DNA from: Rhodospirillaceae bacterium
GTDB taxonomy: Bacteria; Pseudomonadota; Gammaproteobacteria; Steroidobacterales; Rariloculaceae
Reading direction: 5' to 3'
NCBI GenBank assembly: GCA_002718345.1
Contig: PBDA01000044.1
Span: 19,226 to 83,225, forward strand
DNA: 64,000 nucleotides
In this document: piece by piece, positions 2,635-44,242 of the stretch
Layout of the letters: each line of letters opens with the position of its first letter
How positions within the stretch are numbered: position 1 is the first letter of the stretch
The notes under the pieces: generated by a model
Database searches by the model: none
Told to the model about the DNA's origin: nothing
Seen by the model: the letters and a program-made list of their open reading frames with translations, nothing else
Translations under genes and position numbers: made by a program

Positions 2635-4089
2635 CTAGCGACCAGATGTTTGAGATAAAGTTTTAGTCAGGTGGTACAAAAACTCCTGCCCGTCAAAAAA
2701 AGAAGTGATAGATATACGCTCGTCCTGCCCATGTGCACGATTGTCTCCTCGTTCCCTAAAAATACCCGAAACACCGTAAACTGGGATACCTGCATTTCGC
2801 AGATATAGGCCATCAGTTGCACCAGCACTCATGATTGGAATTACAGGTACTCCTGGCCACATGTCTTCAGTAATAGTTTCGATAGGATTTAAAACCTCAG
2901 GCGTCAGAGGAGAAGGAGGTGAAGGCTTTGCATCAGCGAGTGGCGTGATGCTAACTTCACTATCTGCAACCAAAGAATTGAGCATATCTAATACATCAGA
3001 TGGGTGTTCATCAGGCAAGATCCTACAATTAACTATAGCTGTAGCACGTTGAGGCAACGCATTCTCAGCGTGGCCAGCTTCAAGTTGAGTTGCAACACAG
3101 GTAGTACGCATTCGGGAATTGTAGTTAGGAATGATAGCTAACCTGCTAATACTTTCCAGGTCCGGAACATCCTGCAAGATTCCAAGCATTGCAGCACCCA
3201 CTTCATCTGTCTCTAATAATGCAGTACGCTCAAAAAATGATCGAGTCACCTCATTAAGCCTAACCGGAAAGTCATAATCACGGATTCTTCCAAGTGCATC
3301 AGCAAGACGGTAAATTGCATTATCTTTTACAGGAAGTGAACTGTGTCCGCCTGGATTCATAACCTCTATGCGAAAACTCTGATAAATCTTTTCGCTAGCT
3401 TGCACATTATTTGATACATGTAACCCATCTTGAAGAAACCCCCCTCCTCCTTCATTTATAGCAAACTCTGCATCGATCAAATCACGATGGTTAGCAATAA
3501 GCCATGCAACACCGTTATTAGGGCCTGATTCTTCATCAGCAGTAAACGCCATAATGATGTCTCGATCAGGAAGAAAATTTTCTCGAAGCAACCGAATTAA
3601 ATTAGCCACATGAATGGCGATTTCATCTTTATCATCAAGAGTACCTCGGCCATAGTAATACCCATCCATTTCAGTGAATTTGAACGGGTCAACAGTCCAA
3701 TCTTCGGGGTCTGCCTCAACCACATCTAGATGTGCAAGAAAAAGTATCGGTTTGCTAGCAGCATCTCGCCCCCGGTAACGAACAATTAAATTACCTTTTC
3801 GTGGCAATTCACCAAGTACCTGGACATCCCTTTCAGGGAACCCTGCAGCAATGAGGTGATCTGCCATAGCCTGAGCAGCTACAGTTGTACTGCCTGTGCT
3901 ATGGGTAGTATCTATTTCTATAAGCTCATGAAGAAACTCCTTAGCCATTCTCTGATATGGATGAGCAAAATCAGTCTGAGCTAAAGCAGATATTTCTATC
4001 CATGAACAAAGCGCTAAAACCACTACAATGAACTTGATGGAACTCTTAGTAAAAATATTTTTAATTTTTGGAAACTTAGCGCAAATCAT
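2635..4089 (-). CDS. Secreted M20-family metallopeptidase (M20/M25/M40)
   Basis: 484 aa with an N-terminal signal/anchor. It has M20 ligand-type motifs LAHLDVVEA, GRGTLDDK, FTADEESG and HGQDERI. Confidence 0.8.
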   Translation of the reverse strand: MICAKFPKIKNIFTKSSIKFIVVVLALCSWIEISALAQTDFAHPYQRMAKEFLHELIEIDTTHSTGSTTVAAQAMADHLIAAGFPERDVQVLGELPRKGNLIVRYRGRDAASKPILFLAHLDVVEADPEDWTVDPFKFTEMDGYYYGRGTLDDKDEIAIHVANLIRLLRENFLPDRDIIMAFTADEESGPNNGVAWLIANHRDLIDAEFAINEGGGGFLQDGLHVSNNVQASEKIYQSFRIEVMNPGGHSSLPVKDNAIYRLADALGRIRDYDFPVRLNEVTRSFFERTALLETDEVGAAMLGILQDVPDLESISRLAIIPNYNSRMRTTCVATQLEAGHAENALPQRATAIVNCRILPDEHPSDVLDMLNSLVADSEVSITPLADAKPSPPSPLTPEVLNPIETITEDMWPGVPVIPIMSAGATDGLYLRNAGIPVYGVSGIFRERGDNRAHGQDERISITSFFDGQEFLYHLTKTLSQTSGR

Positions 4090-4377
4090 TGTTAATCAGT
4101 CCCTTCTATAAATTGCCTAGCTAGGTGAGCTTTAAAATAACATGGAAAAAACTCTCCGAGTTCCATTCTACCCAGTTTAAAATACCTAAGCTGACAAACA
4201 ACCACAGCTTTTTTTAATTATTTTCTATGCTTAGACTATCTCTAAATATAATTTCTTTTGCGCTTTAAAGCTCCAAGATAGGTAAACTTAACAAAATGAC
4301 TTGAAATCAATAAATTTTCTCTTGGCTTACCTCATGAACCAGAAACAAAAAATAAATACATTAATAGAGGAAAAATA

Positions 4378-5496
4378 ATGAACAAACGAATGATCAAAGC
4401 TAACTTTTATCTTGCTATTACATCGATGGGTATAGCTTTATCAGGAAATACCCAAAACGCTTCGTCAAAGTTTGTTGTTTCAGGATCTGCAGCTAAAGCA
4501 ATGTTGGATACTACATCTATCAACCTTGAAACGGCTGAAAAAATCACGATGGCTTGTGAGCGTTTAGCCGAAGAAGAAGAAGTCAGCATTAGTGTTTATG
4601 TTATTGATAATGATGGTAATAATGTATATATGCACCGAATGGATGGTGAACGTTGGGTAAACACAGCTACTGCAGAAATGAAGGCGCAAACAGCGTTGAC
4701 AATTCGTGGTCCCTCCAAAGAAAGAATGAACCAAGTAATACGCAACCCTAGTGAGGAATGGCAACAAATAGAGCTAGGCGTATTTTCTAATTCGGGTGGT
4801 CTCCCTATTATTGTGGATGATCAACTAATCGGTGCTATTGGGGTTGGTGGATCGGCACCAAGGGTTGAGGAAGGATGGAGTGATGAGATTTGTGCGCATA
4901 AGGCTATGACAGAAGTGATGGGACCACAGCCGCCTCTAGCAGAAGATATTCCACGCCCAAGAACTCCTACAGTTGCTCCAGTTCCGCGGTTTTCAGTAGA
5001 AACACCAACATCTAATCTTCCACCAGAATTTGTGGTCTCAGGGGATGCAGCAGCAGAGATTAGAAATGGAGCCCAAATTTCAGGTGATGCTGCAAGAAAT
5101 GTAGCTCAAGCCTGTCGTGCATGGTCAACAGAAAGGGAAGACACGATGTCATTAGTCATTTTAGATCCCTCGGGCGTGGCTGTTCATGGAGAGAGAATGG
5201 ACGGACAGGTTAATACTGGAATCCAAGCTGCCATGCTTCGAGCTCAAACAGCCCTGCAAAGTCGCGACCCAACCTCAGTACGTGGTGCCGGGTTAGCTAA
5301 TAGACCTTATGGTCTACCCCGTTCTGTTCTGTTATTCGAGTGGCACTTAGAACCGGGTGGACTACCAATAGTCGTTGATGGTCAAATGATAGGTGCGATA
5401 GGTGTGGGTGGAAGTAAGAATGATGAAGCCTGTGCTATTGCAGGACTTCAATCAGTTTTTGGTGATCGAGTTGCAGTGCCCGTTTACCCAAACTGA
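4378..5496 (+). CDS. Secreted protein with two tandem GlcG/HbpS-like (DUF336) domains
   Basis: 372 aa with a signal peptide. The motif GGLPI(I/V)VD-Q(L/M)IGAIGVGGS occurs twice, once in each half. The halves are joined by the Pro-rich linker PQPPLAEDIPRPRTPTVAPVPR. Confidence 0.75.
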   Translation: MNKRMIKANFYLAITSMGIALSGNTQNASSKFVVSGSAAKAMLDTTSINLETAEKITMACERLAEEEEVSISVYVIDNDGNNVYMHRMDGERWVNTATAEMKAQTALTIRGPSKERMNQVIRNPSEEWQQIELGVFSNSGGLPIIVDDQLIGAIGVGGSAPRVEEGWSDEICAHKAMTEVMGPQPPLAEDIPRPRTPTVAPVPRFSVETPTSNLPPEFVVSGDAAAEIRNGAQISGDAARNVAQACRAWSTEREDTMSLVILDPSGVAVHGERMDGQVNTGIQAAMLRAQTALQSRDPTSVRGAGLANRPYGLPRSVLLFEWHLEPGGLPIVVDGQMIGAIGVGGSKNDEACAIAGLQSVFGDRVAVPVYPN

Positions 5497-5543
5497 AAAC
5501 ACTGCCTTACAATGTATATAAGTTATTGCTAAAGGAGATAGCA

Positions 5544-5918
5544 ATGAGTTTAAAAATAAAAGGTACTTTAGCCATATTGGTATTCATGGCGATTAATCCA
5601 ATTGCTTCTGGACACCACTCACATGCCAACTATGTTGAATCAGAATGGTTGTTTCTTGAGGGTACTGTAAGTGAAATCCATTGGATGAACCCTCATAGTT
5701 GGATCTACCTTAATGTAACTGATGCTAATGGACAGCCAAGACCTTGGGCTATTGAAGGTGCTAGCGTGACACAGCTTCGCCGAGATGGATGGACTCAAGA
5801 AAGTATTCAGGTAGGCGATGAACTCCGTATGAGATGCCACCCATTGAAAGATGGTTCTAGAGGTTGTCTACTTGGCTACATAACGCTAGATGATGGTTCA
5901 GAAAAAGAGTTTGACTAA
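5544..5918 (+). CDS. Small secreted His-His/NPH protein, paralog 1 (I believe this is the family listed as DUF6152, unverified)
   Basis: The ATG at 5544 is preceded by AAGGAG; the track start at 5526 is an upstream TTG. The signal peptide ends ...NPIASG and is followed by HHSHANY. The core EIHWMNPHSWIYLNV is shared with the genes at 7660, 25096 and 26217. Confidence 0.7.
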   Translation: MSLKIKGTLAILVFMAINPIASGHHSHANYVESEWLFLEGTVSEIHWMNPHSWIYLNVTDANGQPRPWAIEGASVTQLRRDGWTQESIQVGDELRMRCHPLKDGSRGCLLGYITLDDGSEKEFD

Positions 5919-7659: not shown

Positions 7660-8103
7660 ATGATCAATAAAACTTTAATGCTTTTTTGTTGGGCAACAAT
7701 ATTACTCTCATTGCCTTCCCAAGCTCATCATAATCCAGCTGCTCACTATATCGTTGACGAACGCGTAGAAATCAATGGGATTGTCACCGAGTTCAGACCA
7801 GTGAATCCGCACTCACGTATTTACTTAGATGTAACAAACGATGAGGGCGAAATAGAACAATGGATGGCCGAAGGTGACAGTATTATTAATCTCAGACGAG
7901 CAGGCTGGACTGATGATCAATTTAAACCGGGAGACGAGGTTCAAGTCTTAGGGCGCCCTTCAAGATTTGGATATAACTTAGTTGAATGGACCTTTATCAC
8001 TTATTCTGATGGAGTTGAAGTTGGTGGTGGAAATGGCCAGTTCGGCGAAAGAATGAGGTTTGTTCAAACTCGTCTGGATGAGTATCGCCAACAACGCAAC
8101 TGA
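7660..8103 (+). CDS. Small secreted His-His/NPH protein, paralog 2
   Basis: 147 aa. The signal peptide ends ...LPSQA and is followed by HHNPAAHY. The core is EFRPVNPHSRIYLDV, with a later LRRAGW...KPGDEV motif. Confidence 0.7.
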   Translation: MINKTLMLFCWATILLSLPSQAHHNPAAHYIVDERVEINGIVTEFRPVNPHSRIYLDVTNDEGEIEQWMAEGDSIINLRRAGWTDDQFKPGDEVQVLGRPSRFGYNLVEWTFITYSDGVEVGGGNGQFGERMRFVQTRLDEYRQQRN

Positions 8104-12597: not shown

Positions 12598-12674
12598 TGG
12601 TGGTGATGGGTGGACTTGAACCACCGACCTGCGGGTTATGAATCCGCCGCTCTTACCAACTGAGCTACATCACC
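12598..12674 (-). tRNA. tRNA with anticodon CAT (elongator tRNA-Met, or tRNA-Ile2 if C34 is lysidinylated)
   Basis: The reverse complement is GGTGATGTAGCTCAGTTGGTAAGAGCGGCGGATTCATAACCCGCAGGTCGGTGGTTCAAGTCCACCCATCACCACCA (77 nt). It folds with a perfect 7-bp acceptor stem, a 4-bp D stem (GCTC/GAGC), a 5-bp T stem (GGTGG/CCACC), the anticodon loop TTCATAA and an encoded CCA. G1-C72 are paired, so it is not an initiator tRNA. There is one A31-C39 mismatch. Confidence 0.9.
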
Positions 12675-12931
12675 AATTATTTTTTATCCAACCAACAACT
12701 TGATTTAATTTTAGCTGCTTTAGTCAATCAAATTGAGAGTGATCCGTAATGTTATTGAGAACATCACCTCTCTAGAACAGCAGGGCAACTCAAGCCCAGA
12801 CACGTGAATTTTACATCAGGGAAAGGAAACTTGCTGGTTTCTGGAGTTGTGTGTTCCTAATAGAAAATAGAAATACAGATAAGTCTTAATAGCAAGATGC
12901 CCCAATTGCACTTGCTTCAAACCTTCCATCA

Positions 12932-13121
<190 letters not shown>

Positions 13122-13132
<11 letters not shown>

Positions 13133-14378
13133 TCATTTCGGGCTCGAGTGGGATACCCGTAATCTCTTCGGGACCGTCAGCCGTAATCAGAACGGTGCGT
13201 CCCATCATCAGGCCCGTGTCCTTATTCCAGTCTGGATCGTAGATATCCGACGCGGTCGCGAACACCATGTTCGGCTGAAACTCGATCGTTGGCATACGTG
13301 CGTAGGCATGCTTTTGCCACGAGCCAGCTGTGCCGCCGTACATGCAGCTCGGAAATTCAGGTGATGCCAAGCCGTGGCCGTGGAAACCGCATTCAACTGA
13401 GCCGAAGCCGGCATCGATGATGGGTTTGCGAAACGCGTGAACGGCGTCTTCGATGAGATTACCAGGCTTCATGGCCGCGATACCGCTCTTTTGAGTTTCG
13501 ACGCAGACTTCATGAATGCGTTGGTACTCGGGTTTGGGCTCACCGAGACAGACGGAAACTTCCGCACCCGTGAGGTAACCCTTGTAGCAGGCATGGTATT
13601 CGCACACGACGATGTCGCCCGCCTCGAGCACACGATGACTTGCCGGAGGCCGTTTGCCGTGGGGTGGCGGTACGGCTCCGGAGCTGATCCAGATCATGTC
13701 CTCTTCGCCACCGCCGTGCAGGTTGGCATGCAGCATGTCGGCATACACCTCGGTTTCACGCACGCCGGGGCGCGCCGATGCGATCAATGCATCTGCCATC
13801 GCTTTGGCCAATTCGGCGGATTTGCGTATGCACGCAACCTCCTCAGGTCCCTTGATGATGCGCGTTTGCTCGATGAGCCAACCGGCTTCGACGAATCGTG
13901 CGCTGTCGAGCGCCGATGCAATGTGCGAGAACTGTTGGAAGGGAACGGCCTCAGGGATAACACGTGGGCGCGTTTCGCCGAATCCGACGATACCGATTGC
14001 GGCGTTGGCGAATCCGCGGTCTCGCAGTGTCTCGACGATGTTGTTTGTCGTCGACTGACCGGATCGAACATCTTCGACCCAGCCGCCGGCAAGGGCGCCC
14101 CACTTCGTCACGTCATGTGGGAAGCCAGACCAGATAACCGGATCGCCATCTAGTGGGAAGAGCACACAGCCCGGCGCAACGCGACCTGTTAAATAGCGGT
14201 TGTTAGCGAGAGCGGATTCCCACTTTGATTCATTTCCCCAAACCAGCAGGCAGTCGAGTCCGGCCAGATCCATACGCCAGCGCACTTCGCGCCAGCGGCG
14301 GTCGCGCTCAGTTGCCGTTACGTCTGGCCACTCTCGGTCTGCCAGTTCCCCGACCATGTTGGCCTGTTCTGTTGCCAT
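13122..14378 (-). CDS. M24-family hydrolase, creatinase/Xaa-Pro peptidase-like, encoded in the high-GC patch
   Basis: It has a creatinase/prolidase-type N-terminal domain followed by a pita-bread fold region ([35 protein letters not shown]). The canonical metal-ligand Asp/His-Glu positions look substituted, as in creatinase-type members. The preferred start is the ATG at 14378, preceded by GGAGGAG; the track start at 14423 is also possible. Confidence 0.7.
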
Positions 14379-14431
14379 ACTTCCAGCTCCTCCATTCTTA
14401 TATAGCCGTTTTCTGCAAGACACCTAACAAA

Positions 14432-14596
14432 TTATCCAAAAATAACCCGGCCGTTATCTCGTAGTGTTGAGTCATAACACTGCATTCTGACTTCTGAAAA
14501 ATCCTCAACAGTTGCCGTACTTAGCCCATCATATCTTCCAGTTGCACAACCTGTTGCGATAATAATAAGGAAGGTTAGCAACAATATAAAGTTCAA
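14432..14596 (-). CDS. Possible small lipoprotein (54 aa, TTG start)
   Basis: My own translation is LNFILLLTFLIIIATGCATGRYDGLSTATVEDFSEVRMQCYDSTLRDNGRVIFG, with the lipobox IATGC. AAGAAAGGA lies about 10 nt upstream. It falls below the track length cutoff. Confidence 0.3.
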   Translation of the reverse strand: MNFILLLTFLIIIATGCATGRYDGLSTATVEDFSEVRMQCYDSTLRDNGRVIFG

Positions 14597-14662
14597 GCAT
14601 TGTCTATCCTTTCTTTAATCTTACTAGTAGTAAAATTGCACTTATTTTTTAAGAATAAAAAA

Positions 14663-14689
14663 ACAGCCCTGAAGTATTTTCAGGGCTGT
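14663..14689 (-). terminator. Rho-independent terminator downstream of the TonB-dependent receptor gene
   Basis: An 11-bp perfect stem ACAGCCCTGAA / TTCAGGGCTGT with a 5-nt loop. On the minus strand it is followed by a T7 run. It lies 34 nt after the receptor stop codon. Confidence 0.8.
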
Positions 14690-14722
14690 TTAAGGTTGCG
14701 AATTATCTAGTGTTAATTAATA

Positions 14723-16873
14723 TCAAAACGAGTAATTAAATTTCACACCAAGATTTCTGCCTGGGAGTGGAACTTGGTCTTTAACAAAAGATGTATGGTT
14801 TCTTGCAATTTCATCAAGAAGATTATGTCCAAAAATAGTTACAGCAAACTGTCCATTTGAACCGACAACATCAAAGGTTTTTGTTAATTGAGCACCTAAC
14901 AACTGAAAACCATTAGATGCGGTTTCGTTTTGTGCGAGATTAGTTACTCTATCAACATCTTTTACGTCAACAGACCACTCTAGGTTATTTTGGGAATAAT
15001 AGGATAATGAGTAAAGGTATCTAGAAGGCATCATTCGGGGGATATAGGCACCATTACTGAATTTCCCTGAAATATCATCCCTGCCGAACGAGACATCAAC
15101 TAGGCCAGATCCTATTTCAAAGCTCTTTCCAATTTCTAACTCATAACCAGATATCTCCGCATCTCTTTGCAAGTAGTTTGCAACTAGCAGCCCTTCTTCC
15201 TTTTTAGTTGAGTCTAAAAGATAAATGTAATTATCAACATTATTATTATAAAAACTCAATGTTCCATAAAAATAATCATTCTCAACATTTACAGTTAAAT
15301 CCAAGTTTGTGGATTTTTCTGCTCTTAGGTTCGTATTTCCCTCTTCAAATCTGCTTGTAGCTAGGTGAGGACCATTCATGAATAGTTCTACTGCAGAAGG
15401 AGCTCTTTCTACACCTGCTACACCTAATGATATATGCCACATGTCATTCAGTTGGCGGCCTATGCTAAATGCCAAACTGGACCCATCGTAGTCTTTATCA
15501 TAAGCAGTGGATTCATCATGATGTTCCTCTTCCTCTTCCTCTTCCTCTTCATGTTCATGGGCTTTAATCGAACCTTTTCGGTTGATTTGATCAACTCTAA
15601 AACCAGCGTCTAATTCAAAACCGCCAATCTCTCTGCTTGCATAATAGCCAAAAGAGTTTTCTGTATTTTGAGCGGGCTGCATGAATACTTCTTTGCCTAT
15701 TATTGAAGTGTCTTCTTCAACGAATCTCATGACAACTTTTTGTGTCATTAAATCATTGCTGAGGTCAAATATTGCACCGTATTCTTTAGCATCATTTGTA
15801 AATTTAGTGGGGCCTGCATGATGCTCTTCTTCTTCCTCTTCCTCCTCATCTTCATCGTGGTGCACTTCCGCATGTGCCTCGGTTAATTTGTAATCGCTAT
15901 TTCTGAAGTAATAATCCATTTGTTGAATGAAGTTATTGTTGAAGTTAAATGCACCTTCTATATTTATTACATCAGATTTTGTGGTGCTGAAGATTCTTTC
16001 ATCTTCGTGTTCTTCCTCTTCCTCCTCATCTTCATCGTGGTGCACTTCCGCATGAAAAGGAATCCCATAGACGCTCTCTATATTGCTAGCAGAAAAACCT
16101 ACGTAACCCCAATCCTCAACCCATGAAAAGCCTATTCGGTTTGACTCAGACTCATAATCAGAGTTCTTTAAGTAATCCAAGTCTTCTTCATGATGATCCT
16201 CTTCCTCTCCTTCATGCTCTTCTTCTTCAGCATGAATAATTGATTTAAGGGGGACATCATAGTTGCCAAATTCAGATTTTTTATGTGAAAAAGTGAAATT
16301 CATATCACCTAAAAATTCCACATTATTTTGATATGAAAGATTACGTGTATCTCCACCATTTACTGATTGGCCCTCTACGCCTAGTTTTAGTTCTGGCCCA
16401 GTAAAATCTTCTCTAGCTATGGTGTTATCAACTATATTAACTACTCCGCCAACACCTCCATTGGCATAAAGCAAGGAGGCCGGTCCTCTGACAACTTCAA
16501 TTTGCTGAATATTATTCATATCAATAGCTTGACTATGGTCAGCACCTAATCCTGAGACATCTCTTACAACCATAGAGTTATTAAGAACTTTTACTCGGCC
16601 ACCAGATAATCCTCGAATAACTGGCTGTCCAACTGCTGTCCCATAGTCTGCTGAACCTACACCTAAAAGATTGTCTAGAGCTTCGCCTAAACTTTGGGTT
16701 GAGAAATTACCGATTGCATCACCACTGACAATATGAAGTGGGTCTGCAATTTCAGATATTAGCTGGTCCGTAAAAGAAGAAGTAACCACTACTTCTTCCA
16801 TCTCTTGTCCAATTACAAAATTGGCAAATAATGCACTTACTAGTATCAGTACACTACGAAAATACTTCCTCAT
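14723..16873 (-). CDS. TonB-dependent outer-membrane receptor with four His/Glu-rich insertions (candidate divalent-metal, e.g. zinc, receptor)
   Basis: 716 aa with a signal peptide. It has a plug region (VVVTSS...PVIRGL...VVRGP), a C-terminal barrel and a terminal F. The inserts are HAEEEEHEGEEEDHHEED, HAEVHHDEDEEEEEEHEDE, HAEVHHDEDEEEEEEEEHHAG and KAHEHEEEEEEEEEHHDE. Confidence 0.85.
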   Translation of the reverse strand: MRKYFRSVLILVSALFANFVIGQEMEEVVVTSSFTDQLISEIADPLHIVSGDAIGNFSTQSLGEALDNLLGVGSADYGTAVGQPVIRGLSGGRVKVLNNSMVVRDVSGLGADHSQAIDMNNIQQIEVVRGPASLLYANGGVGGVVNIVDNTIAREDFTGPELKLGVEGQSVNGGDTRNLSYQNNVEFLGDMNFTFSHKKSEFGNYDVPLKSIIHAEEEEHEGEEEDHHEEDLDYLKNSDYESESNRIGFSWVEDWGYVGFSASNIESVYGIPFHAEVHHDEDEEEEEEHEDERIFSTTKSDVINIEGAFNFNNNFIQQMDYYFRNSDYKLTEAHAEVHHDEDEEEEEEEEHHAGPTKFTNDAKEYGAIFDLSNDLMTQKVVMRFVEEDTSIIGKEVFMQPAQNTENSFGYYASREIGGFELDAGFRVDQINRKGSIKAHEHEEEEEEEEEHHDESTAYDKDYDGSSLAFSIGRQLNDMWHISLGVAGVERAPSAVELFMNGPHLATSRFEEGNTNLRAEKSTNLDLTVNVENDYFYGTLSFYNNNVDNYIYLLDSTKKEEGLLVANYLQRDAEISGYELEIGKSFEIGSGLVDVSFGRDDISGKFSNGAYIPRMMPSRYLYSLSYYSQNNLEWSVDVKDVDRVTNLAQNETASNGFQLLGAQLTKTFDVVGSNGQFAVTIFGHNLLDEIARNHTSFVKDQVPLPGRNLGVKFNYSF
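15830..15874. repeat. Copy 1 of a perfect 45-bp direct repeat inside the receptor gene
   Basis: The sequence ttcttcctcttcctcctcatcttcatcgtggtgcacttccgcatg is identical at 15830-15874 and 16010-16054. The offset is 180 bp, so the copies are in frame. Each encodes HAEVHHDEDEEEEE. Confidence 0.9.
16010..16054. repeat. Copy 2 of the perfect 45-bp direct repeat inside the receptor gene
   Basis: See copy 1; the two copies were compared base by base. Confidence 0.9.
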
Positions 16874-16921
16874 TTCAGGGCTCCTTTAAAATAAAACTTA
16901 AATTCTTAGATCAGAAAAAAA

Positions 16922-17191
16922 TTAAATTTTTGGAGGTGCCCTTGATTGAAAGCCTCTGGGGGCCAGAGAGAAGAAAACATCTTTCATTTGCAATGAAAGA
17001 GTTTCGGACAAAGTAACTGTTGAGATTACTAGTGATGATACAACCGTATCAGATATATCATTCTTGCAAAACTGGCATTCTATTTGTGCAGTTTCACTGT
17101 CTGAATAAGCATGATAAACAACATCCAAAGAAGTAGAAGCCAGAAACAAAAAGCTGGCTATAACAAACATTTTATGGGTTGCTTTACTCAT
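16922..17191 (-). CDS. Small exported hypothetical protein with a C-x-x-C motif, immediately upstream of the TonB-dependent receptor
   Basis: 89 aa. The signal-like N-terminus is MSKATHKMFVIASFLFLASTS, followed by HAYSDSETAQIECQFCK. Small H/C-motif proteins often accompany metal receptors. The C-terminal third looks non-genic, so the extent is uncertain. Confidence 0.35.
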   Translation of the reverse strand: MSKATHKMFVIASFLFLASTSLDVVYHAYSDSETAQIECQFCKNDISDTVVSSLVISTVTLSETLSLQMKDVFFSLAPRGFQSRAPPKI

Positions 17192-17280
17192 CAGCGCTAA
17201 TTTTTCATGCCTATATGAATATAGTCAAGAAAAAAATACTAAAGCTCGTTAAATACCTGTTAAATTAACGGCAGTTTTTA

Positions 17281-17297
17281 AATTATTTCAAATAATT
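17281..17297. promoter_or_regulatory. Perfect 8-1-8 AT-rich palindrome, candidate Fur-family (Fur/Zur-like) operator
   Basis: The sequence is AATTATTTcAAATAATT. It lies 90 nt upstream of the ATG at 17191 of the small-protein/receptor unit and contains ATTAT/ATAAT half-site-like cores. Confidence 0.25.
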
Positions 17298-17360
17298 ACG
17301 GAACTTACACAGGCACTTCAAAAAACCAAAATCTGCAAGTAATAGAACTTTAAAAGGTAA

Positions 17361-17981
17361 TTAGTTTTCCATTTCGAGCATTTCTAAGGCATAACGCAAC
17401 GTGCCTTCGCCATCAACTCGTTCACGGAAACTTTCAATAAAAACTTTCCCAACAATTTCATTATTTAAATTGACCACAAAAACGCCAGGATGAGGAATTC
17501 CATAAGCAGGCTCTCCCGGGCTGTATTGTTCATTCAATATCCCTAAAGCCGATATAGTTGAAGTATCAATATCGGAAATAAAGGGATAGGTTAAATTACC
17601 GGCATTAATAAATTCTTGCTGAAGTTCAGGTGAATCGTAAGTTATAACAACAATTCCAACCCCAGCCTCTTCGTAATCTTCAGCATTATTTTGCAACTGC
17701 CCGAGTTGCTCTCTACAAAATGGTCACCAATCAACGGAACGAATTGCAAAAACAACAAGCCCCTTTTCCCCATAAAACTGGCTAACACTAGTAATTTCTT
17801 GCCCGCCATAAATTGCCCGTATTTCTGGAAACAGAGAACCTATAGACAGGCCTGGATCAAAGGAATCTGTATCTTCATACAGGAACATATTATCCAAGTT
17901 AGGTTGTGCCTGTACTACACGTAATGAAATCATCCACACCAATACCAGAAGAAATGCAGGAAAAAGTTTATTTAATTTCAT
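17361..17981 (-). CDS. Exported AhpC/TSA (redoxin) family thiol peroxidase/oxidoreductase, candidate selenoprotein with U-x-x-C active site (in-frame TGA at 17726-17724)
   Basis: Track ORFs 17724..17981 and 17361..17696 share one frame. Read through, the junction is ...FAIRSVDW-TGA-PFCREQLGQLQNNAEDYEEAGVGIVVITYD.... The N-terminal signal peptide is MKLNKLFPAFLLVLVWMISLRVVQA. The downstream redoxin body includes FPFISD-type and PGVFVVN motifs. Confidence 0.6.
17688..17721 (-). promoter_or_regulatory. Candidate bacterial SECIS hairpin
   Basis: The mRNA reads UGA-CC-AUUUU-GUAGAGA-GCAACU-CGGGC-AGUUGC-AAAAU. This gives a 6-bp perfect upper stem, the G-rich apical loop CGGGC about 20-24 nt after the UGA, and a possible 5-bp lower stem with a 7-nt bulge. 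Confidence 0.45.
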
Positions 17982-18051: not shown

Positions 18052-18831
18052 CTATTTCAAAAAAGTTAGCATAGCGTCCAAAAATAATCTTGGATCCTGG
18101 AGTTGTGGGCAGTGGCCTATTCCTGGCAATTCCTGAAGTTCTGAATTGCTAATTCCCGAATTAAGCTCATATGAAAGAGCAGGTGGGGTTGTCGCATCAG
18201 CAAGTCCAACAATAATTTGGGTTGGGTTTTTAATTTCTCCAAGTCTAGGGCGATTATCTAGGAAGGTAAGTGCTAAAGCTGCATTTGCAAACAAAAAAGG
18301 ATCCGCTTTTGACAGATGGAGACGTCTACGCTCCATAATAGATGGATTATTTCTAATAAAGTCTTCAGGAAACATTCTTTTGATTGCGGCATCTAATACA
18401 GAATCCATTCCTTCAGTCTGTGCCTTCTTAGCAAGAATTCTTAGAGGCTCTTTGGCCGGCTCCGGAAATCCCGGGCCTGTATCAACTAACACTAGCTTTT
18501 TAAAACTACGGCCATGATGAATTGCTAGACTTCCAGCAACAAAACCACCAAAACCATTTCCAACCACATGAGTATCACCAGACAAACAAAGTGCACTCAT
18601 TGTTTCTGCCACCAAGTCCGCATAGGAGTCGACAGTTTGTCCAATTGGACCAGTTGAGCCCCCAAAACCTGGGAAATTTATTCGAGTAACACGATACCGA
18701 GCACTTAATTCATCTATCACATCATCGTAAACCGTCATTTCTGCAAGAAGGGTTGGAAGCAGCAACAGATCTGGGCCACCTCCTATCTGATTATACTCAA
18801 CCTGATTTTTTCCAACCTTGAGATTCGGCAT
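18052..18831 (-). CDS. Alpha/beta-fold hydrolase
   Basis: 259 aa. It has NFPGFGGS, a nucleophile elbow HVVGNGFGG-type segment, and the C-terminal LPGIGHCPQLQDP typical of the fold. Confidence 0.75.
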   Translation of the reverse strand: MPNLKVGKNQVEYNQIGGGPDLLLLPTLLAEMTVYDDVIDELSARYRVTRINFPGFGGSTGPIGQTVDSYADLVAETMSALCLSGDTHVVGNGFGGFVAGSLAIHHGRSFKKLVLVDTGPGFPEPAKEPLRILAKKAQTEGMDSVLDAAIKRMFPEDFIRNNPSIMERRRLHLSKADPFLFANAALALTFLDNRPRLGEIKNPTQIIVGLADATTPPALSYELNSGISNSELQELPGIGHCPQLQDPRLFLDAMLTFLK

Positions 18832-19766
18832 TAGATTTGATCAATATATGCTCTCATCCGTTCCCTTGCTGCAGTATCAGGCATTCCCCCGAGAGGCGCT
18901 CTAGCATTCTCTGCCATATGATGAGGATTGCTAGTCTCAGTTAGTACGCATGTAACAGTAGGGTGAGAAAGGATGTACTTAAGAGAAAATTGTGCCCAGC
19001 TCTCACAATCAAATTCTGCTGTCCAGTCAGGAAGTGGTACTCCCTGAAGACGCTGAAAATAGGCACCATTCATAAAAGGTCGATTGAGAAGCACCGCAAG
19101 ACCCATGTCCTCTGCTAACGGTAACAAACGTTCTTCAGCACGCCTTTCAGTGACAGAGTAGTTCATCTGAACAAAGTCAGGTGTTTCACGGCCTAAAAAT
19201 TCTTCAAGTTGATCGTAGAGACGGTATTCGGAAACAGTAACGCCAATATAACGGGCATGCCCTTCTTCTTTCCATTGCTGGAGGTTTTCCCACTGGGTAT
19301 CCAAATCAGTCAGACTAAAAATCTGCACAAGATCAATTGTTTCCCTGCGATAGAGTCTTTGAGTCTCGCGAAACTGTTGAATGCCAGCTTCTTTGCCAAC
19401 TTTATCAATCTTGGTTGTCACAAAAAGGGAGTTACGAAGATCTGGGGCACTCAACACCTGACCAAGGCCAGCATCGTTTTCAGGATTTCTTGGCCATGTA
19501 TCAACAACACTACCTCCACTATCACGAAGTGTTCTCAAAACTGCAGCAAGTGGGTCCATTCCATTAGAAGAAACCTCAGATACAACCTTACTAGAACCTA
19601 GTCCCACGACAGGCAGAGCTTCCCCTGTTGATGGTATAAGTCGCTGTGGCATCTGATTTTGAGCAAATAAGGGGCTAGAACTCAACCCGGAAACACCCAA
19701 AGCTGACAACGTTGCAATGAAATCTCTGCGTGTAGTTGAAAAAATTTTGTCTACTTCTTTCTGCAC
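18831..19766 (-). CDS. Aldo/keto reductase with a twin-arginine (Tat) signal peptide
   Basis: 311 aa. The N-terminus is STTRRDFIATLSALGVSGLSSSPLFAQ. The AKR body is clearly paralogous to 8120..9052, sharing LPVVGLGS, YIGVT, NYSVTERRAEERLLPLA and PDWTAEFDCESWAQF. Confidence 0.75.
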   Translation of the reverse strand: MQKEVDKIFSTTRRDFIATLSALGVSGLSSSPLFAQNQMPQRLIPSTGEALPVVGLGSSKVVSEVSSNGMDPLAAVLRTLRDSGGSVVDTWPRNPENDAGLGQVLSAPDLRNSLFVTTKIDKVGKEAGIQQFRETQRLYRRETIDLVQIFSLTDLDTQWENLQQWKEEGHARYIGVTVSEYRLYDQLEEFLGRETPDFVQMNYSVTERRAEERLLPLAEDMGLAVLLNRPFMNGAYFQRLQGVPLPDWTAEFDCESWAQFSLKYILSHPTVTCVLTETSNPHHMAENARAPLGGMPDTAARERMRAYIDQI

Positions 19767-24870: not shown

Positions 24871-25095
24871 GTTATCTCCCTCTATTCAAGTATTATGTTT
24901 ACCTTGGGAAAATAGAGCTTCGCTTGGCTGGGTGTTTGGGTCAAGCTTAAAACTAAAATTTAGTGGAAAAAATATATGTTGCAGTTCAGAATTAGTGTAT
25001 AAATTTTAATCAAATAAACAAAACAAAACTGGCATTCTTTGATAATAACAAAAAGTTCTCATTTGGAATCTATAGTGGTAAAACGACTTCTTTTC

Positions 25096-25464
25096 ATGGC
25101 TTCAGGCATTTTTATAGTTTTCAGCGGAATTTCTATTAAAGCCCATCATGCAAACTCTATGTATGACAGAGCGTCTAATATCACCATTTCCGGGGTTGTA
25201 ACAAGATGGCAGTTTATCAATCCACATGCAGGCCTATGGTTAGAAGTGACCAATGAAACTAACGAAGCACAAGAATGGTCAGCAGAGTTTCAAGGAACTT
25301 TAGATCTTTATCGTCACTTCCAATTCAATAAAGACACATTTAAGCCAGGTGACACAATCACACTTATTGGGCATCCGGCCAGAACGGGCGGTCCAACTAT
25401 TAGCGCAAGAATAGTAATATTTTCTGATGGAACAGAAGTTGATGTGCGAAGTGCGCCAGACTAA
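25096..25464 (+). CDS. Small secreted His-His/NPH protein, paralog 3
   Basis: From the ATG at 25096 the signal peptide is MASGIFIVFSGISIKA, followed by HHANSMYD. It has the WQFINPHAGLWLEV core and NKDTFKPGDTITLIG. The track start at 25039 is an upstream TTG. Confidence 0.7.
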   Translation: MASGIFIVFSGISIKAHHANSMYDRASNITISGVVTRWQFINPHAGLWLEVTNETNEAQEWSAEFQGTLDLYRHFQFNKDTFKPGDTITLIGHPARTGGPTISARIVIFSDGTEVDVRSAPD

Positions 25465-26216: not shown

Positions 26217-26612
26217 ATGGAAACTCAAGCAAAGACCGCTTTAATCTTATGTGCTCTTATATTATTTACTCTAAATACTGGATCTGAGGCACATCATGCT
26301 AACTCCGCTTATGATAGAACAAAATCAATTTCAGTAACTGGCACAGTCACCCAATGGCAGTTTATTAATCCTCATGTTGGAATATTTCTAGATGTCATAA
26401 ATGAACAGGGAAACACTGAAAACTGGTCAGGTGAGTTTCAAAGCGTTCAAGATTTATATAGATTTTTCCGCTGGAATAAAGATACTTTTAAACCCGGAGA
26501 CGAGGTAACAATTATTGGCAACCCTGACAGAAGGCCAAACATGCGGTCAATGTGGACCGAAGCAGTAGAGCTTCCAGATGGCACCCATATCAACGTCAGA
26601 AACGACCCATAA
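26217..26612 (+). CDS. Small secreted His-His/NPH protein, paralog 4
   Basis: 131 aa. The signal peptide ends ...NTGSEA and is followed by HHANSAYD. It has WQFINPHVGIFLDV and NKDTFKPGDEVTIIG. Confidence 0.7.
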   Translation: METQAKTALILCALILFTLNTGSEAHHANSAYDRTKSISVTGTVTQWQFINPHVGIFLDVINEQGNTENWSGEFQSVQDLYRFFRWNKDTFKPGDEVTIIGNPDRRPNMRSMWTEAVELPDGTHINVRNDP

Positions 26613-40019: not shown

Positions 40020-41063
40020 CTACCCTGCTTTAGAAGTGCGTCCAGAATCTAAGGCATCTTCAACAAGTTGTGTCAAAACATCATCTACACTAATTTTGTC
40101 CGAATCCGCAAAGTAATTAGTAAGCACACGATGTCTCATCACAGGCAAAGCTAGTGCGGCTATATCATCTTGAGTTACGTGATAACGCCCCATCATCAAA
40201 GCTCTAGACTTTGCAGCCAATGATAAAAACATTGTTGCACGTACACTTGCTCCATATTGCACATACCGTTTAACAACCTCTGGAGACAGTGGATCCTCCG
40301 GTCGCGAAGCACGAACAAGCTTCACAGCAAAGCGGCTAACAGATTCTGAAATTGGAACTTGTCTAACAAGTTCTTGAAATTGAAGAATCTGTTCTGGTGT
40401 AGTAACAGCCGATACTTCCGGAATATCCATTCTTGTCGTAAACCTATCAACGACAGCAAGCTCTTCATCATCGGTAAGATAGTCCAAAACCACGTTAAAC
40501 AAAAACCTATCTAACTGTGCCTCGGGTAGCGGATAAGTTCCCTCTAACTCAATTGGGTTTTGTGTTGCCAGCACAAAAAATGGCGGCTCAATTTCATGCA
40601 AATTACCACGAACGGTAACAGTTCTCTCCTGCATAGCTTCTAAAAGTGCTGATTGGGTTTTTGGTGGTGTTCTATTGATCTCATCAGCTAATAAAACATT
40701 GGCAAAAAGAGGACCAGGAACAAACGTCCAGGTTCTATTACCTGTAGTAGCATCTTCTTCAATAATATCGGTACCCGTCACGTCCGTCGGCATTAAATCC
40801 GGGGTAAACTGTATTCTTTTAAAAGACAGTCCTAGAGCAACAGCAAGTGTTCTTACTAGCATGGTTTTTGCTGTACCTGGCATTCCAGTTATCAAGCAGT
40901 GTCCACCTACTAACAGGGTCATCAAAAGATTGTCCACCACTTCCTCTTGTCCAATAATGACTTTTCTTACTTCAACACGAATAGCATCAAGGGAGCCCTT
41001 GAATGTTTCTATCAACGCTCGAGCTTCTTCAGTGTTAAGTTGGTTGGCTGTTTCTGAACTCAA
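40020..41063 (-). CDS. MoxR-family AAA+ ATPase
   Basis: 347 aa. Walker A is GMPGTAKT, Walker B is LLADEINR, and the sensor/arginine finger region is ATQNPIELEGTYPLPEAQLDRF. Confidence 0.9.
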   Translation of the reverse strand: MSSETANQLNTEEARALIETFKGSLDAIRVEVRKVIIGQEEVVDNLLMTLLVGGHCLITGMPGTAKTMLVRTLAVALGLSFKRIQFTPDLMPTDVTGTDIIEEDATTGNRTWTFVPGPLFANVLLADEINRTPPKTQSALLEAMQERTVTVRGNLHEIEPPFFVLATQNPIELEGTYPLPEAQLDRFLFNVVLDYLTDDEELAVVDRFTTRMDIPEVSAVTTPEQILQFQELVRQVPISESVSRFAVKLVRASRPEDPLSPEVVKRYVQYGASVRATMFLSLAAKSRALMMGRYHVTQDDIAALALPVMRHRVLTNYFADSDKISVDDVLTQLVEDALDSGRTSKAG

Positions 41064-43339: not shown

Positions 43340-43342
43340 TTG

Positions 43343-44242
43343 TCACTCAATTCCTCGTACATCATCTATTTCGCGTTGCACCAATGCCAATTCCAACAGC
43401 AAGCTCTGAAGCGCATCAAGATAAACGTCGTTATCCATTCCCCCACGATTCTGTCGTAGTGTTTCTACATCTCTTTCCAATTCATCCAACTCATCCATAA
43501 GTATTTCTAGCTCAGCTGTCATTAGGACTCTTTCCTGAAGTAGAGCAAGGTTCAAAGCGAAAGAGTTTTCGCCCACAATGGCTGGATGTTCAGTTGCTAG
43601 CAGACCCTCACTCTCATAACTCTCTGCTACTTTAGTCGCTGCAAAATCGAAAGCCTCCCGAACAGTAACTGCACCATTTTTATTTATATCTGCCTCATCA
43701 CTTGAAAGTGCTGCCGCCCAATACGCTCCAAACCGAGTGGCGTTTCTCTCTCCAGGGCTTTTAGTTGCGGTAATGAGTGTTCGACCCTCTGATGCCCAAG
43801 ATTCAAGCACAGCACCACTTGCACTTGTTGTATTAACTACAACTTGTTGTGTCGCTGGAATATTTTCTAATAAAGACGCAAGAGTCTCACCATCAATGTC
43901 TGGCCCAGGTAAGTTAAATTTATATTGCTCACCATCATGAGTACCATGGCCAATAAAAAAAACTGCTAACTGGTCTTTAGCAGTTATTACCTCAGATATT
44001 CGCTGCAACTCTGCTATGAGCGATTCACGACTGGCTTTGTGTCCAATAAGTAGTGAAATATTTGAATCATCCCCATTTGATCGGAGTGCTGCCTGAGCCA
44101 TTGATTCTGCCTGTGCCTCAAAACGCTCTTGATAACGTTGCTCACCACCTAACCCTGCCACGATCAGGTAGTGGAGTTCAGCATGAGCATTGGTTACTAC
44201 CCCAATGACGCTAAAAACAAAACAAATTAAAGCGGCCCTCAT
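43343..44242 (-). CDS. Secreted caspase/legumain (C13)-fold-like protein with Ser at the nucleophile position and a C-terminal coiled coil
   Basis: The start at 44242 forms an ATGA overlap with the upstream stop. The signal peptide is MRAALICFVFSVIGVVTNAHA. The pattern is HYLIVAGLGG ... LAVFFIGHGTHDG ... QVVVNTTSASGAV, compared with the C13 pattern H-G ... E-A-C-x-S-G. Confidence 0.4.
   Translation of the reverse strand: MRAALICFVFSVIGVVTNAHAELHYLIVAGLGGEQRYQERFEAQAESMAQAALRSNGDDSNISLLIGHKASRESLIAELQRISEVITAKDQLAVFFIGHGTHDGEQYKFNLPGPDIDGETLASLLENIPATQQVVVNTTSASGAVLESWASEGRTLITATKSPGERNATRFGAYWAAALSSDEADINKNGAVTVREAFDFAATKVAESYESEGLLATEHPAIVGENSFALNLALLQERVLMTAELEILMDELDELERDVETLRQNRGGMDNDVYLDALQSLLLELALVQREIDDVRGIE

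Follow-up and report, generated by a model that had tools for sequence, protein, structure and literature searches.

On the minus strand of the window, by which we mean the whole 64,000-nucleotide stretch of DNA that was analysed, two short ORFs share one reading frame. The 5' ORF (17981..17724) encodes 85 aa, while the 3' ORF (17696..17361) begins at a TTG and encodes 111 aa. Between them lie only a TGA at 17726-17724 and nine sense codons (PFCREQLGQ), so that 17981..17361 is a single frame interrupted solely by this TGA. The initial annotation had described the same arrangement, and translation of the region confirmed every coordinate. Reading through the TGA yields a product of 206 aa (...RSVDW-U-PFCREQLGQLQ...), which matched the Pfam family AhpC-TSA (PF00578) with an E-value of 1.3e-20 and 74 bits (cut-off 26), and Redoxin with an E-value of 2.5e-15. 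Judging from comparison with related sequences, the two ORFs are one gene for a 206-residue, putatively exported thioredoxin-fold redox protein, in which the in-frame TGA almost certainly encodes selenocysteine (Sec). The features of this gene are listed in Table 1.

Table 1. Features of the predicted selenoprotein gene, in window coordinates.
Feature	Position	Strand	Basis or detail
Predicted selenoprotein CDS, complete	17361..17981	minus	translation; 206 codons plus TAA stop (17363-17361)
Predicted Sec-type signal peptide, residues 1-25, MKLNKLFPAFLLVLVWMISLRVVQA / QPNLD	17907..17981	minus	read from sequence
UGA codon 86, predicted to be read as selenocysteine	17724..17726	minus	Sec/Cys column; four assemblies
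Redox motif U86-P-F-C89, thioredoxin-like UxxC	17715..17726	minus	alignments to homologues, AhpE and 5um7
Bacterial SECIS-like hairpin	17693..17709	minus	RNAalifold; covariation
G161-I-P-H-P165-G166 loop, probable cis-Pro loop facing UxxC	17484..17501	minus	conservation

We aligned the joined product to its homologues and found that the TGA column holds either Sec or Cys. Among 85 related loci, the equivalent of codon 86 is TGA in 52 and a cysteine codon in 33 (TGC in 22, TGT in 11). The TGA-bearing loci span approximately 42-100% identity, and the alternation occurs at the identical codon. In 67 full-length homologues, Cys is nearly invariant (at least 90%) at this column. A neighbour-joining tree indicated that Sec is ancestral for the main clade and that there is one derived Cys clade, with two parsimony changes. 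TGA has not been reassigned, as 15 of the 47 window genes with 150 aa or more end in an ordinary TGA stop, and so does one of the orthologues (L001). A scan of the window for any TGA with an open stretch of 50 or more codons on each side returned, besides this gene, only one pair of adjacent genes (41060-44305). The pair lacks a redox motif, and the scan thus yielded no second selenoprotein candidate in the window.

Downstream of the UGA, the transcript can form a hairpin with a 5' arm GCAACU (17709-17704), an apical loop CGGGC (17703-17699) and a 3' arm AGUUGC (17698-17693). The stem begins 14 nt after the UGA, in agreement with the initial annotation, and the loop starts 20 nt past it (17723-17704); this last distance is 20-21 nt in all orthologues, without indels. 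RNAalifold on 41 TGA forms recovered exactly this 6-bp helix, with 99.2% of the cells paired. Two pairs vary without a single mismatch in these 41 sequences: pair 24-34 is GC in 27, AU in 11 and GU in three, and pair 25-33 is CG in 36 and UA in five. Compensatory GC/AU changes occurred in at least five clades. The observed covariation was reached by none of 500 shuffles, and controls slid along the alignment were at most 57% paired. In the 43 distinct TGA forms the stem is 98.8% paired, and all six pairs are in register in 40. The Cys forms, by comparison, are 61.6% paired at the hairpin, have a complete stem in 0 of 33 and have a mean hairpin energy of +0.9 kcal/mol versus -7.7 kcal/mol in the TGA forms. 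The hairpin is therefore a conserved element of the TGA orthologues, kept with compensatory changes, and is absent as a complete stem from their Cys counterparts.

The loop and the codons that make up the stem are similarly restricted. The stem has 6 bp and the loop 5 nt; in some orthologues one more pair forms, which gives 7 bp and a loop of 3 nt. G[G/U] occurs among the three leading loop nucleotides of every one of the 43 TGA forms (the window loop reads C-G-G-G-C). Column 21 is G in 40 of the 43 irrespective of the encoded residue, C is the last base of the first Leu/Phe codon in 39 of them (CUC/UUC), and the second Leu codon is always YUG. Synonymous positions in the hairpin region are thus frozen. 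Some of the pairing is dictated by the peptide Q-L-x-Q-L itself, since CAG and CUG are reverse complements. In the single Cys form with the peptide QLVQLQ (L072), five of the six stem pairs still form.

The folding energy of the hairpin is unremarkable. The window hairpin folds at -6.6 kcal/mol, alone or in a 47-nt context, and at -9.3 kcal/mol when 66 nt are included. The TGA forms average -11.4 kcal/mol, and these energies depend on the segment folded. In single-sequence folding, the window hairpin was no stabler than its shuffled versions (z 0.5 to 0.7, with 135-144 of 200 shuffles folding at least as well). Since z-scores of approximately 0 to 1 were obtained for Sec and Cys forms alike, stability alone is unusable as evidence. 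A search of Rfam, using the gathering threshold for the whole window and permissive settings for 17600-17800, returned no SECIS or other relevant family.

The published model of bacterial SECIS elements places an upper stem of 4-16 bp, with an apical loop of 3-9 nt, directly after the UGA (PMC13188914, Fig. 2). It further calls for a G at one or both of the two leading positions of the apical loop, as a rule with G or U next to it, for a spacing of 16-37 nt between UGA and apical loop, and for a minimum free energy no higher than -7.5 kcal/mol (PMC13188914). The hairpin agrees with the published rules for loop, stem, loop G and spacing. The bacterial SECIS geometry proposed in the initial annotation therefore stands on these counts, while the energy of the AT-rich window copy is borderline (-6.6 or -9.3 versus -7.5 kcal/mol). 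A lower stem of AUUUU (17721-17717) and AAAAU (17692-17688), also suggested there, is present in the window. Counts across orthologues show no conservation of it: in the P-F group, to which the window belongs, 12 of 28 sequences have a mismatch at pair 12-39, and in the P-Y group 14 of 15 have one at pair 11-40. We thus rejected the lower stem as a conserved feature.

We searched for selA, selB, selD and tRNA-Sec with ARAGORN, a motif scan and Pfam on ten window genes (eight of them adjoining the locus), with a 10-kb extension beyond each window end. These searches turned up none of the four, either in the 64-kb window itself or in the extensions at its left and right ends. The locus of an orthologue with 53% identity (L026) contains, in order, selD (602-1693), the redoxin gene (1833-2531), a CoA-transferase, tRNA-SeC (3778-3871) and the C-terminus of selB (3935-4519).

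Other neighbours of the gene are less widely shared. The upstream aldo-keto reductase and hydrolase are common to the two nearest relatives only. A conserved operon with the downstream 89-aa CQFC ORF and a TonB-dependent receptor was considered and rejected, as this arrangement is not conserved among relatives. Scans for promoters and terminators gave nothing above shuffled expectation. In the window's own clade, the gene recurrently adjoins secreted proteins containing DUF6152, which could be periplasmic partners or substrates. We also considered whether overlapping pairs of a DUF6152 gene and a downstream ORF are programmed frameshifts; this was rejected because each downstream ORF has a later Met of its own and a signal-like N-terminus.

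Four other explanations of the TGA were weighed. Read-through in other systems can be stimulated by downstream structures. It is conceivable, if improbable, that the UGA is read through without selenocysteine, with a near-cognate or suppressor tRNA inserting Trp, Cys or Arg and the hairpin acting as a general stimulator. The thermodynamically unremarkable hairpin would fit this, as would the fact that the organism's Sec machinery was not seen in the window or the 10 kb beyond its left end. However, the position is that of the nucleophilic Cys of a CxxC motif, which would be functional with Cys or Sec only, and the family shows the classic Sec/Cys alternation over the 85 loci. The loop also keeps the G[G/U] signature and the spacing typical of SelB-dependent elements, and one orthologue lies among selD, tRNA-Sec and selB.

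Very improbable is the possibility that the locus encodes two separate polypeptides, a secreted one of 85 residues and a cytoplasmic one of 111 residues starting at the TTG at 17696, which associate or act independently. Every public gene call treats the locus in this way, and databases hold many 113-114-aa 'proteins' that begin just past the CxxC. Conversely, the nine codons from the TGA to the TTG, nominally intergenic, are conserved as protein: P-[F/Y]-C is invariant across orthologues, with P87 and C89 invariant or nearly so. The supposed starts vary among orthologues (ATG, GTG and TTG at different residues), and the window TTG falls within the 3' arm of the hairpin. The C-terminal piece lacks both redox residues, and the Cys homologues are single chains. 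In the structural model described below, the break falls past strand beta-3, where helix alpha-1 begins, and would divide a single thioredoxin-fold domain. The initial annotation had argued that neither half makes sense alone.

A decaying pseudogene, in which a TGC or TGT codon has mutated to TGA, is effectively refuted by the comparative sequence data. TGA is one substitution away from either cysteine codon, no sel genes are visible in the window, and one relative (L004) has an extra TAA at codon 67, which implies that individual copies can be damaged or mis-assembled. Against this, the same TGA is found in 52 loci spanning approximately 42-100% identity and is followed by a covarying hairpin that is specific to the TGA forms. 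Purifying selection is strong in both halves of the gene (dN/dS 0.09-0.14). Compared with the L001 orthologue, dN/dS is 0.136 in the N-terminal part before the TGA and 0.094 in the C-terminal part after it, and comparison with a second orthologue (L008) gave the same result (about 0.13 and 0.09). These low values on either side of the TGA imply that both halves are translated. The window copy has no frameshift and no further stop, and neither have four metagenome assemblies obtained independently from the same population. These assemblies come from different samples and centres (ERZ27286375, JGI 3300020478, a TARA sample and ERZ6778701), differ by 0-1 nt across the gene and all contain the TGA, which we conclude is genuine. 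Nothing specific to the locus favours a sequencing or assembly error, and with an identical TGA in four assemblies and in 51 other loci its probability is negligible and it can be called already refuted. The Sec/Cys column, the purifying selection, the covarying hairpin, the four assemblies and the orthologue within a selD, tRNA-Sec and selB cluster together bear out the original proposal of one gene in which a UGA at the first cysteine position of a CxxC motif encodes Sec.

The N-terminus of this predicted selenoprotein has the features of an export signal, namely a basic N-region, a 15-residue hydrophobic core and V-Q-A before the cleavage site (VQA|QP). Close orthologues retain ...LQA|QPNLDNMF. 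A hydrophobic signal or anchor segment is present in all 44 distinct N-termini of TGA forms; the Kyte-Doolittle mean over 12 residues exceeds 1.8 in 43 of them, in which the segment follows basic residues, and three have a lipobox. These observations agree with the export signal recognised earlier and predict an extracytoplasmic location, in a heuristic reading of the N-terminal sequences.

To place the redox motif, we considered alignments and a structural model. Upstream of the motif is an invariant R81-S82-x-D-W85. In the alignment to AhpE, U86 falls on the Thr of the peroxiredoxin (Prx) motif and C89 on the peroxidatic Cys, and in the alignment to 5um7, a thioredoxin-signature protein, WCPFC falls on WCPDC. 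As U86 occupies the Thr position of TxxC and C89 that of the peroxidatic Cys, the motif is a thioredoxin-like UxxC and does not contain a peroxidatic Sec. The TGA had initially been placed at either the peroxidatic Cys or the first Cys of CxxC; the second of these holds, while the peroxidatic position is taken by C89. The PxxxT/SxxC motif is not kept, its Pro position being the invariant Ser82 and its Thr position Sec/Cys86. Across 68 sequences G161, I162, P165 and G166 do not vary, and P163 is kept in at least 90%. The AhpE segment 'GIANRGTF' aligns with 'GIPHPGVF', which puts P165 at the position of the catalytic Arg; the Prx Arg is therefore absent. GIPHPG is probably a cis-Pro loop that faces the UxxC, and P165 stands where such a Pro would be expected in proteins of the TlpA/ResA type. 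An AlphaFold2 model of a Cys homologue with 54-56% identity (P0003) had a pLDDT of 89.5. Its top Foldseek matches were all Prx (BCP, AhpE, PrxQ and AhpC), with E-values of about 1e-9 to 1e-10 (best 6e-10) and target-normalised TM-scores of at most 0.85. The model thus points to a Prx-type thioredoxin fold.

From these results we suggest how the gene may be decoded and what its product may do. At UGA86, the 6-bp hairpin with its G-containing loop, 14-31 nt downstream, would recruit SelB-GTP-Sec-tRNA(Sec), presumably by binding SelB, and selenocysteine would be inserted in place of termination. The signal peptide would then carry the unfolded chain through the Sec translocon and be cleaved after Ala25. 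In the periplasm, U86 at the N-terminus of helix alpha-1 would be the nucleophile of a U-P-F-C89 selenenylsulfide/selenol-thiol couple, which would face the invariant GIPHPG loop. Considering that the catalytic Pro, Thr and Arg of Prx are replaced by Ser82, Sec86 and Pro165, we infer from sequence that the protein is a thiol-disulfide (selenosulfide) oxidoreductase acting in the manner of TlpA/ResA rather than a peroxidase. A SECIS within the coding sequence would also restrict the encoded peptide, here to Q-[L/F]-[G/V]-[Q/E]-L-Q. In the Cys-containing clade the hairpin is lost and the peptide is mostly Q-M-I-Q-L-Q. The 43 Sec and 33 Cys forms thus provide a clean natural experiment on the constraint that a coding-region SECIS imposes on synonymous sites and on the peptide.

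The practical value of these results lies in annotation. Public gene calls split the locus into 85 and 111 aa in four assemblies, and the expectation that standard annotation would miss the gene was borne out by every public call and by dozens of orthologues. What results is an 85-aa orphan ORF and a 'peroxiredoxin' cut down to 111-114 aa, and in one public entry the UGA is translated as Trp. NCBIfam has no model that covers the family, which is in part why annotation pipelines split the gene. The locus adds one more predicted periplasmic UxxC selenoprotein from an oxic marine bacterium and leaves knowledge of selenocysteine decoding unchanged. A wider reading, tentative and rather unlikely, is that the family is an old and strictly extracytoplasmic selenoenzyme of marine Gammaproteobacteria, exported through the Sec translocon or membrane-anchored, and perhaps also a principal client that keeps the Sec-decoding machinery in these genomes. 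The embedding of one orthologue in selD, tRNA-Sec and selB would speak for this, as would the ancestral Sec of the main clade with its derived, hairpin-less Cys clade and the recurrent secreted DUF6152 neighbours in the window's clade. If true, it would mean a previously undescribed Sec-dependent periplasmic redox pathway.

An exported selenoprotein was initially considered unusual. For the selenoprotein MccSep of Geobacter sulfurreducens (gsu2937-2936), however, experiments have established a periplasmic location, and its signal peptide of 25 residues is cleaved off (bioRxiv 10.1101/2025.11.18.688581); export is therefore not very unusual. Like the window gene, MccSep had been called as two ORFs on either side of an in-frame UGA, and it has a SECIS-like element and a signal peptide. 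Its fold and chemistry are unrelated (five c-type haems and polysulfide reduction), and it is a precedent for export only.

With the peroxiredoxins (BCP/PrxQ, AhpE and AhpC) the window protein shares the overall fold and the Pfam AhpC-TSA match, but not the residues at the three catalytic positions. In Sec-containing Prx the Sec is peroxidatic (TxxU), whereas that of the window protein lies three residues upstream of this position. TlpA, ResA, StoA and DsbE (CcmG) have W-C-x-x-C, an opposing Pro-containing loop and an N-terminal signal or anchor in common with it. Sequence matches to models and structures of ResA and StoA are weak, and the NCBIfam scores for ResA (31.1 bits, cut-off 170) and StoA (23.4 bits, cut-off 210) do not pass. 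Unlike the TlpA/ResA proteins, the window protein has Sec for the first Cys, and its fold is closest to solved peroxiredoxin structures; the neighbourhood of the gene showed neither a DsbD/CcdA-type reductant nor a cytochrome-maturation context. The best-scoring named NCBIfam models both describe thioredoxin-fold families with Sec-containing members. These are NF040769 'SelL-related redox protein' (37.6 bits, cut-off 120, E=1.6e-9) and NF041054 'ResA-like WAxxUGC motif-containing protein' (20.2 bits, cut-off 300, E=3e-4). Both scores are far under the cut-offs, so the window protein is a member of neither.

The closest known system consists of the selenoproteins named 'Prx-like protein' or 'Prx-like 1', with pfam00578 and UxxC (PMC1088965, Zhang, Fomenko & Gladyshev 2005; PMC2398784, Zhang & Gladyshev 2008). 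A 'Prx-like thiol:disulfide oxidoreductase' with PF00578 and UxxC/UxxU is classed elsewhere as 'predicted with high confidence' (PMC13188914). The window protein shares with Prx-like 1 the Pfam domain, the UxxC in place of the TxxU/TxxC of Prx (PMC1088965) and a marine metagenomic origin. The GOS dataset holds direct orthologues of the window protein. A 'Prx-like 1' read from it (JCVI_READ_1091141210084; ...RSVDWUPYCKRQLVQLQ...YGIPYPG...) is 45% identical to the window protein over 164 ungapped residues (E=2e-52), and a second read (JCVI_READ_1095907043969) matches one group of the related loci (L055-L062) over the stretch compared. The two papers (PMC1088965, PMC2398784) do not discuss an export signal, a hairpin contrast between Sec and Cys forms or linkage to sel genes, and 'signal peptide' and 'periplasm' occur in neither. 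The redoxin class is thus not new, as had been recognised, and because the family has been in lists of marine selenoproteins since 2005-2008, the present result is an annotation fix and not a discovery. The gene very probably encodes an approximately 20-kDa extracytoplasmic thioredoxin-fold oxidoreductase of the 'Prx-like 1 / Prx-like thiol:disulfide oxidoreductase' selenoprotein family, from which it differs in nothing of kind, being a further unannotated member from a gammaproteobacterial population of 42% GC.

The minus strand around the TGA codon reads CGT TCC GTT GAT TGG TGA CCA TTT TGT AGA GAG CAA CTC GGG CAG TTG CAA. Only this TGA and nine sense codons separate two ORFs in the same frame, and reading through them yields a product of 206 residues with the motif RSVDW-U-PFC. 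The coordinates given for the ORFs, the TGA and the hairpin in the initial annotation all agreed with the window sequence. The joined protein matched the Pfam families AhpC-TSA (1.3e-20) and Redoxin (2.5e-15), and its N-terminus (MKLNKLFPAFLLVLVWMISLRVVQA/QPNLD) resembles a signal peptide.

Coordinates of the redoxin gene, its surroundings in the window and the related locus L026
Feature	Location	Strand	Remarks
85-aa ORF	window 17981..17724	minus	same frame as 111-aa ORF
TGA codon	window 17726-17724	minus	read from window sequence
Hairpin GCAACU/CGGGC/AGUUGC	window 17709-17693	minus	
111-aa ORF	window 17696..17361	minus	TTG start; same frame as 85-aa ORF
Aldo-keto reductase	window 18831-19766	minus	
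89-aa ORF	window 16922-17191	minus	
TonB-dependent receptor	window 14723-16873	minus	
Block between redoxin and tRNA-Met	window 12598-17360		~4.7 kb
DUF6152 genes (four)	window 5526-5918, 7660-8103, 25039-25464, 26217-26612	plus	
Peptidase-C13-like and TPR/peptidase-MA ORFs	window 41060-44305	minus	TGA at 43345-43343
selD	L026 602-1693	same as redoxin	AIRS and AIRS_C domains, GGGCGCK motif
TGA-containing redoxin	L026 1833-2531		
Family-III CoA-transferase	L026 2545-3720	opposite to redoxin	
tRNA-SeC, anticodon TCA	L026 3778-3871	opposite to redoxin	
selB C-terminal part	L026 3935-4519	opposite to redoxin	winged-helix domains; runs off locus

The in-frame TGA is shared by many relatives. Among the hits of a protein search, ~85 were full-length homologues (roughly 211 aa) that carry W-C-P-[YF]-C, and ~30 were "proteins" of 113-114 aa beginning just 3' of the CxxC, a pattern that marks orthologues as split at this very site. 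The homologous codon was TGA in all six MAGs found in the genome collection (62-75% identity). Across 85 loci from this collection and a metagenome scan, the equivalent of codon 86 was TGA in 52, TGC in 22 and TGT in 11. Sixteen contigs from independent metagenomes represent the window's own population, and the four that were read all carry the TGA and match the window's copy of the gene with at most one nucleotide difference. This answers the earlier call for read support as far as assemblies allow.

Selection has acted on both sides of the codon. Compared with the nearest relative, L001, dN/dS was 0.136 in the mature N-terminal part and 0.094 after the TGA, and the same was found with L008; against more distant relatives, synonymous sites were saturated. 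Hence both halves are translated. Among the 47 window genes with 150 aa or more, 15 end in TGA as their ordinary stop, so the code is not reassigned. A neighbour-joining tree placed the TGA state across the whole main clade, with one derived Cys clade (Halioglobus type) nested inside it and a Cys outgroup outside, which requires two changes by parsimony.

Several individual loci deviate or stand out. L015 (JABAHS010044188.1) carries two tandem redoxin paralogues on one contig, at 2180 and 2866, both with a TGA and the version of the hairpin with a 7-bp stem and GGU loop. The copy in the Ca. Rariloculaceae MAG L004 (JBJKYM010000015.1) has an additional in-frame TAA at codon 67 (about 3199-3201), and may be truly inactivated or reflect an assembly error. 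The recorded sequence of the homologue P0064 (L092 272-859) has Trp in place of Sec, while its DNA has TGA followed by the hairpin, indicating that the gene caller used a TGA=Trp code. Within the Cys clade, P0092 (L093 1001-1645; 15 member sequences) has a genuine Ser codon (AGC) at this position, giving SxxC.

Folded alone, the window hairpin reaches -6.6 kcal/mol (z-score 0.5-0.7), and the majority of shuffles are at least as stable. While its single-sequence stability is unimpressive, the comparative signal is strong. The hairpin region is free of indels, and 41-43 distinct TGA forms were aligned in register; RNAalifold on these gave exactly the 6-bp helix. In the TGA forms 98.8% of cells were paired, compared to 61.6% in the Cys forms. 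All six pairs were present in 40/43 TGA forms but in 0/33 Cys forms, and mean hairpin energies were -7.7 and +0.9 kcal/mol, respectively. Among TGA forms, the pair at alignment columns 24-34 was GC in 27-29, AU in 11 and GU in 3, with no A-C mismatch, and its AU state occurs in at least five separate tree clades. Pair 25-33 was CG in 36-38 and UA in 5, again without mismatch. None of 500 shuffles attained the covariation score of the real alignment, and when the 3' arm was slid as a control, pairing was at most 57%.

Synonymous positions in the TGA-form hairpin are frozen in a way that codon bias cannot explain. The variable codon 5' of the stem has G in its third position in 40/43 TGA forms, whatever the amino acid, and the first Leu/Phe codon ends in C, the first loop nucleotide, in 39/43 (CUC/UUC). 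Pairing keeps the second Leu codon as YUG in every TGA form. The window itself uses different codons for its two Gln residues (CAA, CAG) and for its two Leu residues (CUC, UUG), exactly as pairing needs. Because CAG is the reverse complement of CUG, part of the stem is encoded by the peptide Q-L-x-Q-L itself: L072, the only Cys form with QLVQLQ, still makes 5/6 pairs.

Published bSECIS constraints comprise a loop of 3-9 nt, a stem of 4-16 bp, a spacing of 16-37 nt and a G among the first two nucleotides of the loop, usually as G[G/U] (PMC13188914). Loops in the TGA forms lie 20-21 nt from the UGA; their sequence is CGGGC or CGUGC or, where the stem has 7 bp, GGU/GUG/GUC. The hairpin falls within these limits, and only the energy limit of -7.5 kcal/mol is borderline for the AT-rich window copy. 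Rfam returned no match for the hairpin. The initial proposal of a SECIS-like hairpin is borne out by covariation specific to TGA forms and by these constraints, while the additional lower stem AUUUU/AAAAU is not conserved among orthologues.

No sel gene was found in the window, where tRNA-Met is the sole tRNA (Pfam on ten window genes, eight round the locus), or in the 10 kb past its left end. A motif scan of all fetched DNA detected a SelD signature in L026 (Ga0315339_1000021), a 405-kb metagenome contig whose redoxin orthologue is 53% identical to the window protein. The orthologue there shares a cluster with selD, tRNA-SeC and selB, which links the family physically to selenocysteine decoding and is no proof of the trait in the window organism.

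The Cys homologue P0003 was modelled with AlphaFold2 (pLDDT 89.5): a thioredoxin fold is preceded by a low-confidence N-terminal helix, which we interpret as a signal or anchor. Among solved structures, the peroxiredoxins Bcp, AhpE, PrxQ and AhpC come closest to this model (E ~1e-9; target-normalised TM-score up to 0.85). In a HMMER alignment to AhpE the Prx catalytic residues are missing from the window protein: the peroxidatic Cys corresponds to C89, the Thr of TxxC to U86, the Pro to invariant S82 and the catalytic Arg to invariant P165 (GIPHPG). The WCPDC of a thioredoxin-signature protein aligned with WCPFC. By these alignments, the active site is a thioredoxin/TlpA-like UxxC on a Prx scaffold, with GIPHPG as the probable cis-Pro loop. 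No NCBIfam model reached its cut-off, the best being "SelL-related redox protein" (37.6 bits vs 120).

The proposed export is supported by the signal-like N-terminus in the window and by a hydrophobic segment after basic residues in 44/44 distinct TGA-form N-termini. Members of the window's clade have cleavable signals (...LQA/QPNLDNMF), whereas uncleaved anchors occur in other clades and lipoboxes in a few. Judging from these N-termini, an extracytoplasmic location appears to hold for the family as a whole.

What the data show directly are a conserved TGA, purifying selection and a conserved hairpin; the remaining steps of the best-supported mechanism we infer. The hairpin would recruit SelB-GTP-Sec-tRNA(Sec) to insert Sec at UGA86, and the preprotein would pass through the Sec translocon and be cleaved after A25. 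In the periplasm, U86 could attack disulfides of its substrates or other oxidised forms of sulfur, and C89 would resolve the mixed selenenylsulfide. No DsbD/CcdA-type gene is adjacent to the redoxin.

Upstream of the redoxin lie an aldo-keto reductase and an alpha/beta hydrolase, an order common only to the two nearest relatives. The twin-arginine-like N-terminus of the reductase (STTRRDFIATLSALGVSG...LFAQ) suggests Tat export. Downstream are an 89-aa ORF, a TonB-dependent receptor and an M24 peptidase, a block absent from L001 and L008, where tRNA-Met is directly 3' of the redoxin. The 89-aa ORF, called as a gene in 4/4 assemblies, has a hydrophobic segment near its N-terminus, carries a CQFC motif and matched no Pfam family. 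The receptor contains four very acidic, His-rich insertions (e.g. HAEVHHDEDEEEEEEEEHH and KAHEHEEEEEEEEEHHDE), suggestive of a metal-binding loop array. Promoter and terminator scans gave nothing convincing.

DUF6152-containing proteins recurrently flank the redoxin in the wider clade and may be functionally associated with it. Each of the four DUF6152 genes in the window adjoins an uncharacterised protein (~250-285 aa) whose N-terminus looks like a signal. In relatives L002, L003, L004, L009, L010 and L014, the Sec-redoxin has as direct neighbours proteins (335-367 aa) that carry DUF6152 at the N-terminus, and their C-terminal part resembles the window's separate ORFs. Elsewhere in the window, the peptidase-C13-like and TPR/peptidase-MA ORFs are also in frame, with a TGA and one codon between them. 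This pair has no redox motif, and they are therefore probably just adjacent genes.

Considering the conserved TGA, the dN/dS values and the covarying hairpin, the initial reading as a single Sec-encoding gene was right, and we regard the window gene as very probably genuine. This unannotated gene adds a member to an already known selenoprotein family and is neither new in kind nor unusual. The "Prx-like protein" (UxxC) was a known family by 2005 with 22 Sargasso Sea sequences (PMC1088965), "Prx-like 1" (pfam00578, UxxC) comprised 225 Sec sequences in GOS (PMC2398784), and a 2026 review still lists the family as "predicted with high confidence" (PMC13188914). Direct orthologues stand under "#Prx-like 1" in the GOS supplementary dataset, with DWUPYC 19 times and DWUPFC 11 times; one of them, JCVI_READ_1091141210084, shares 45% identity with the window protein across 164 residues without gaps (E = 2e-52). 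Nor is a periplasmic selenoprotein as exceptional as first supposed. Signal-sequence selenoprotein substrate-binding proteins and lipoproteins split at in-frame TGA codons have been predicted. MccSep of Geobacter, likewise annotated as two ORFs, carries a signal peptide of 25 residues that is cleaved off, and the protein is periplasmic by experiment (bioRxiv 10.1101/2025.11.18.688581).
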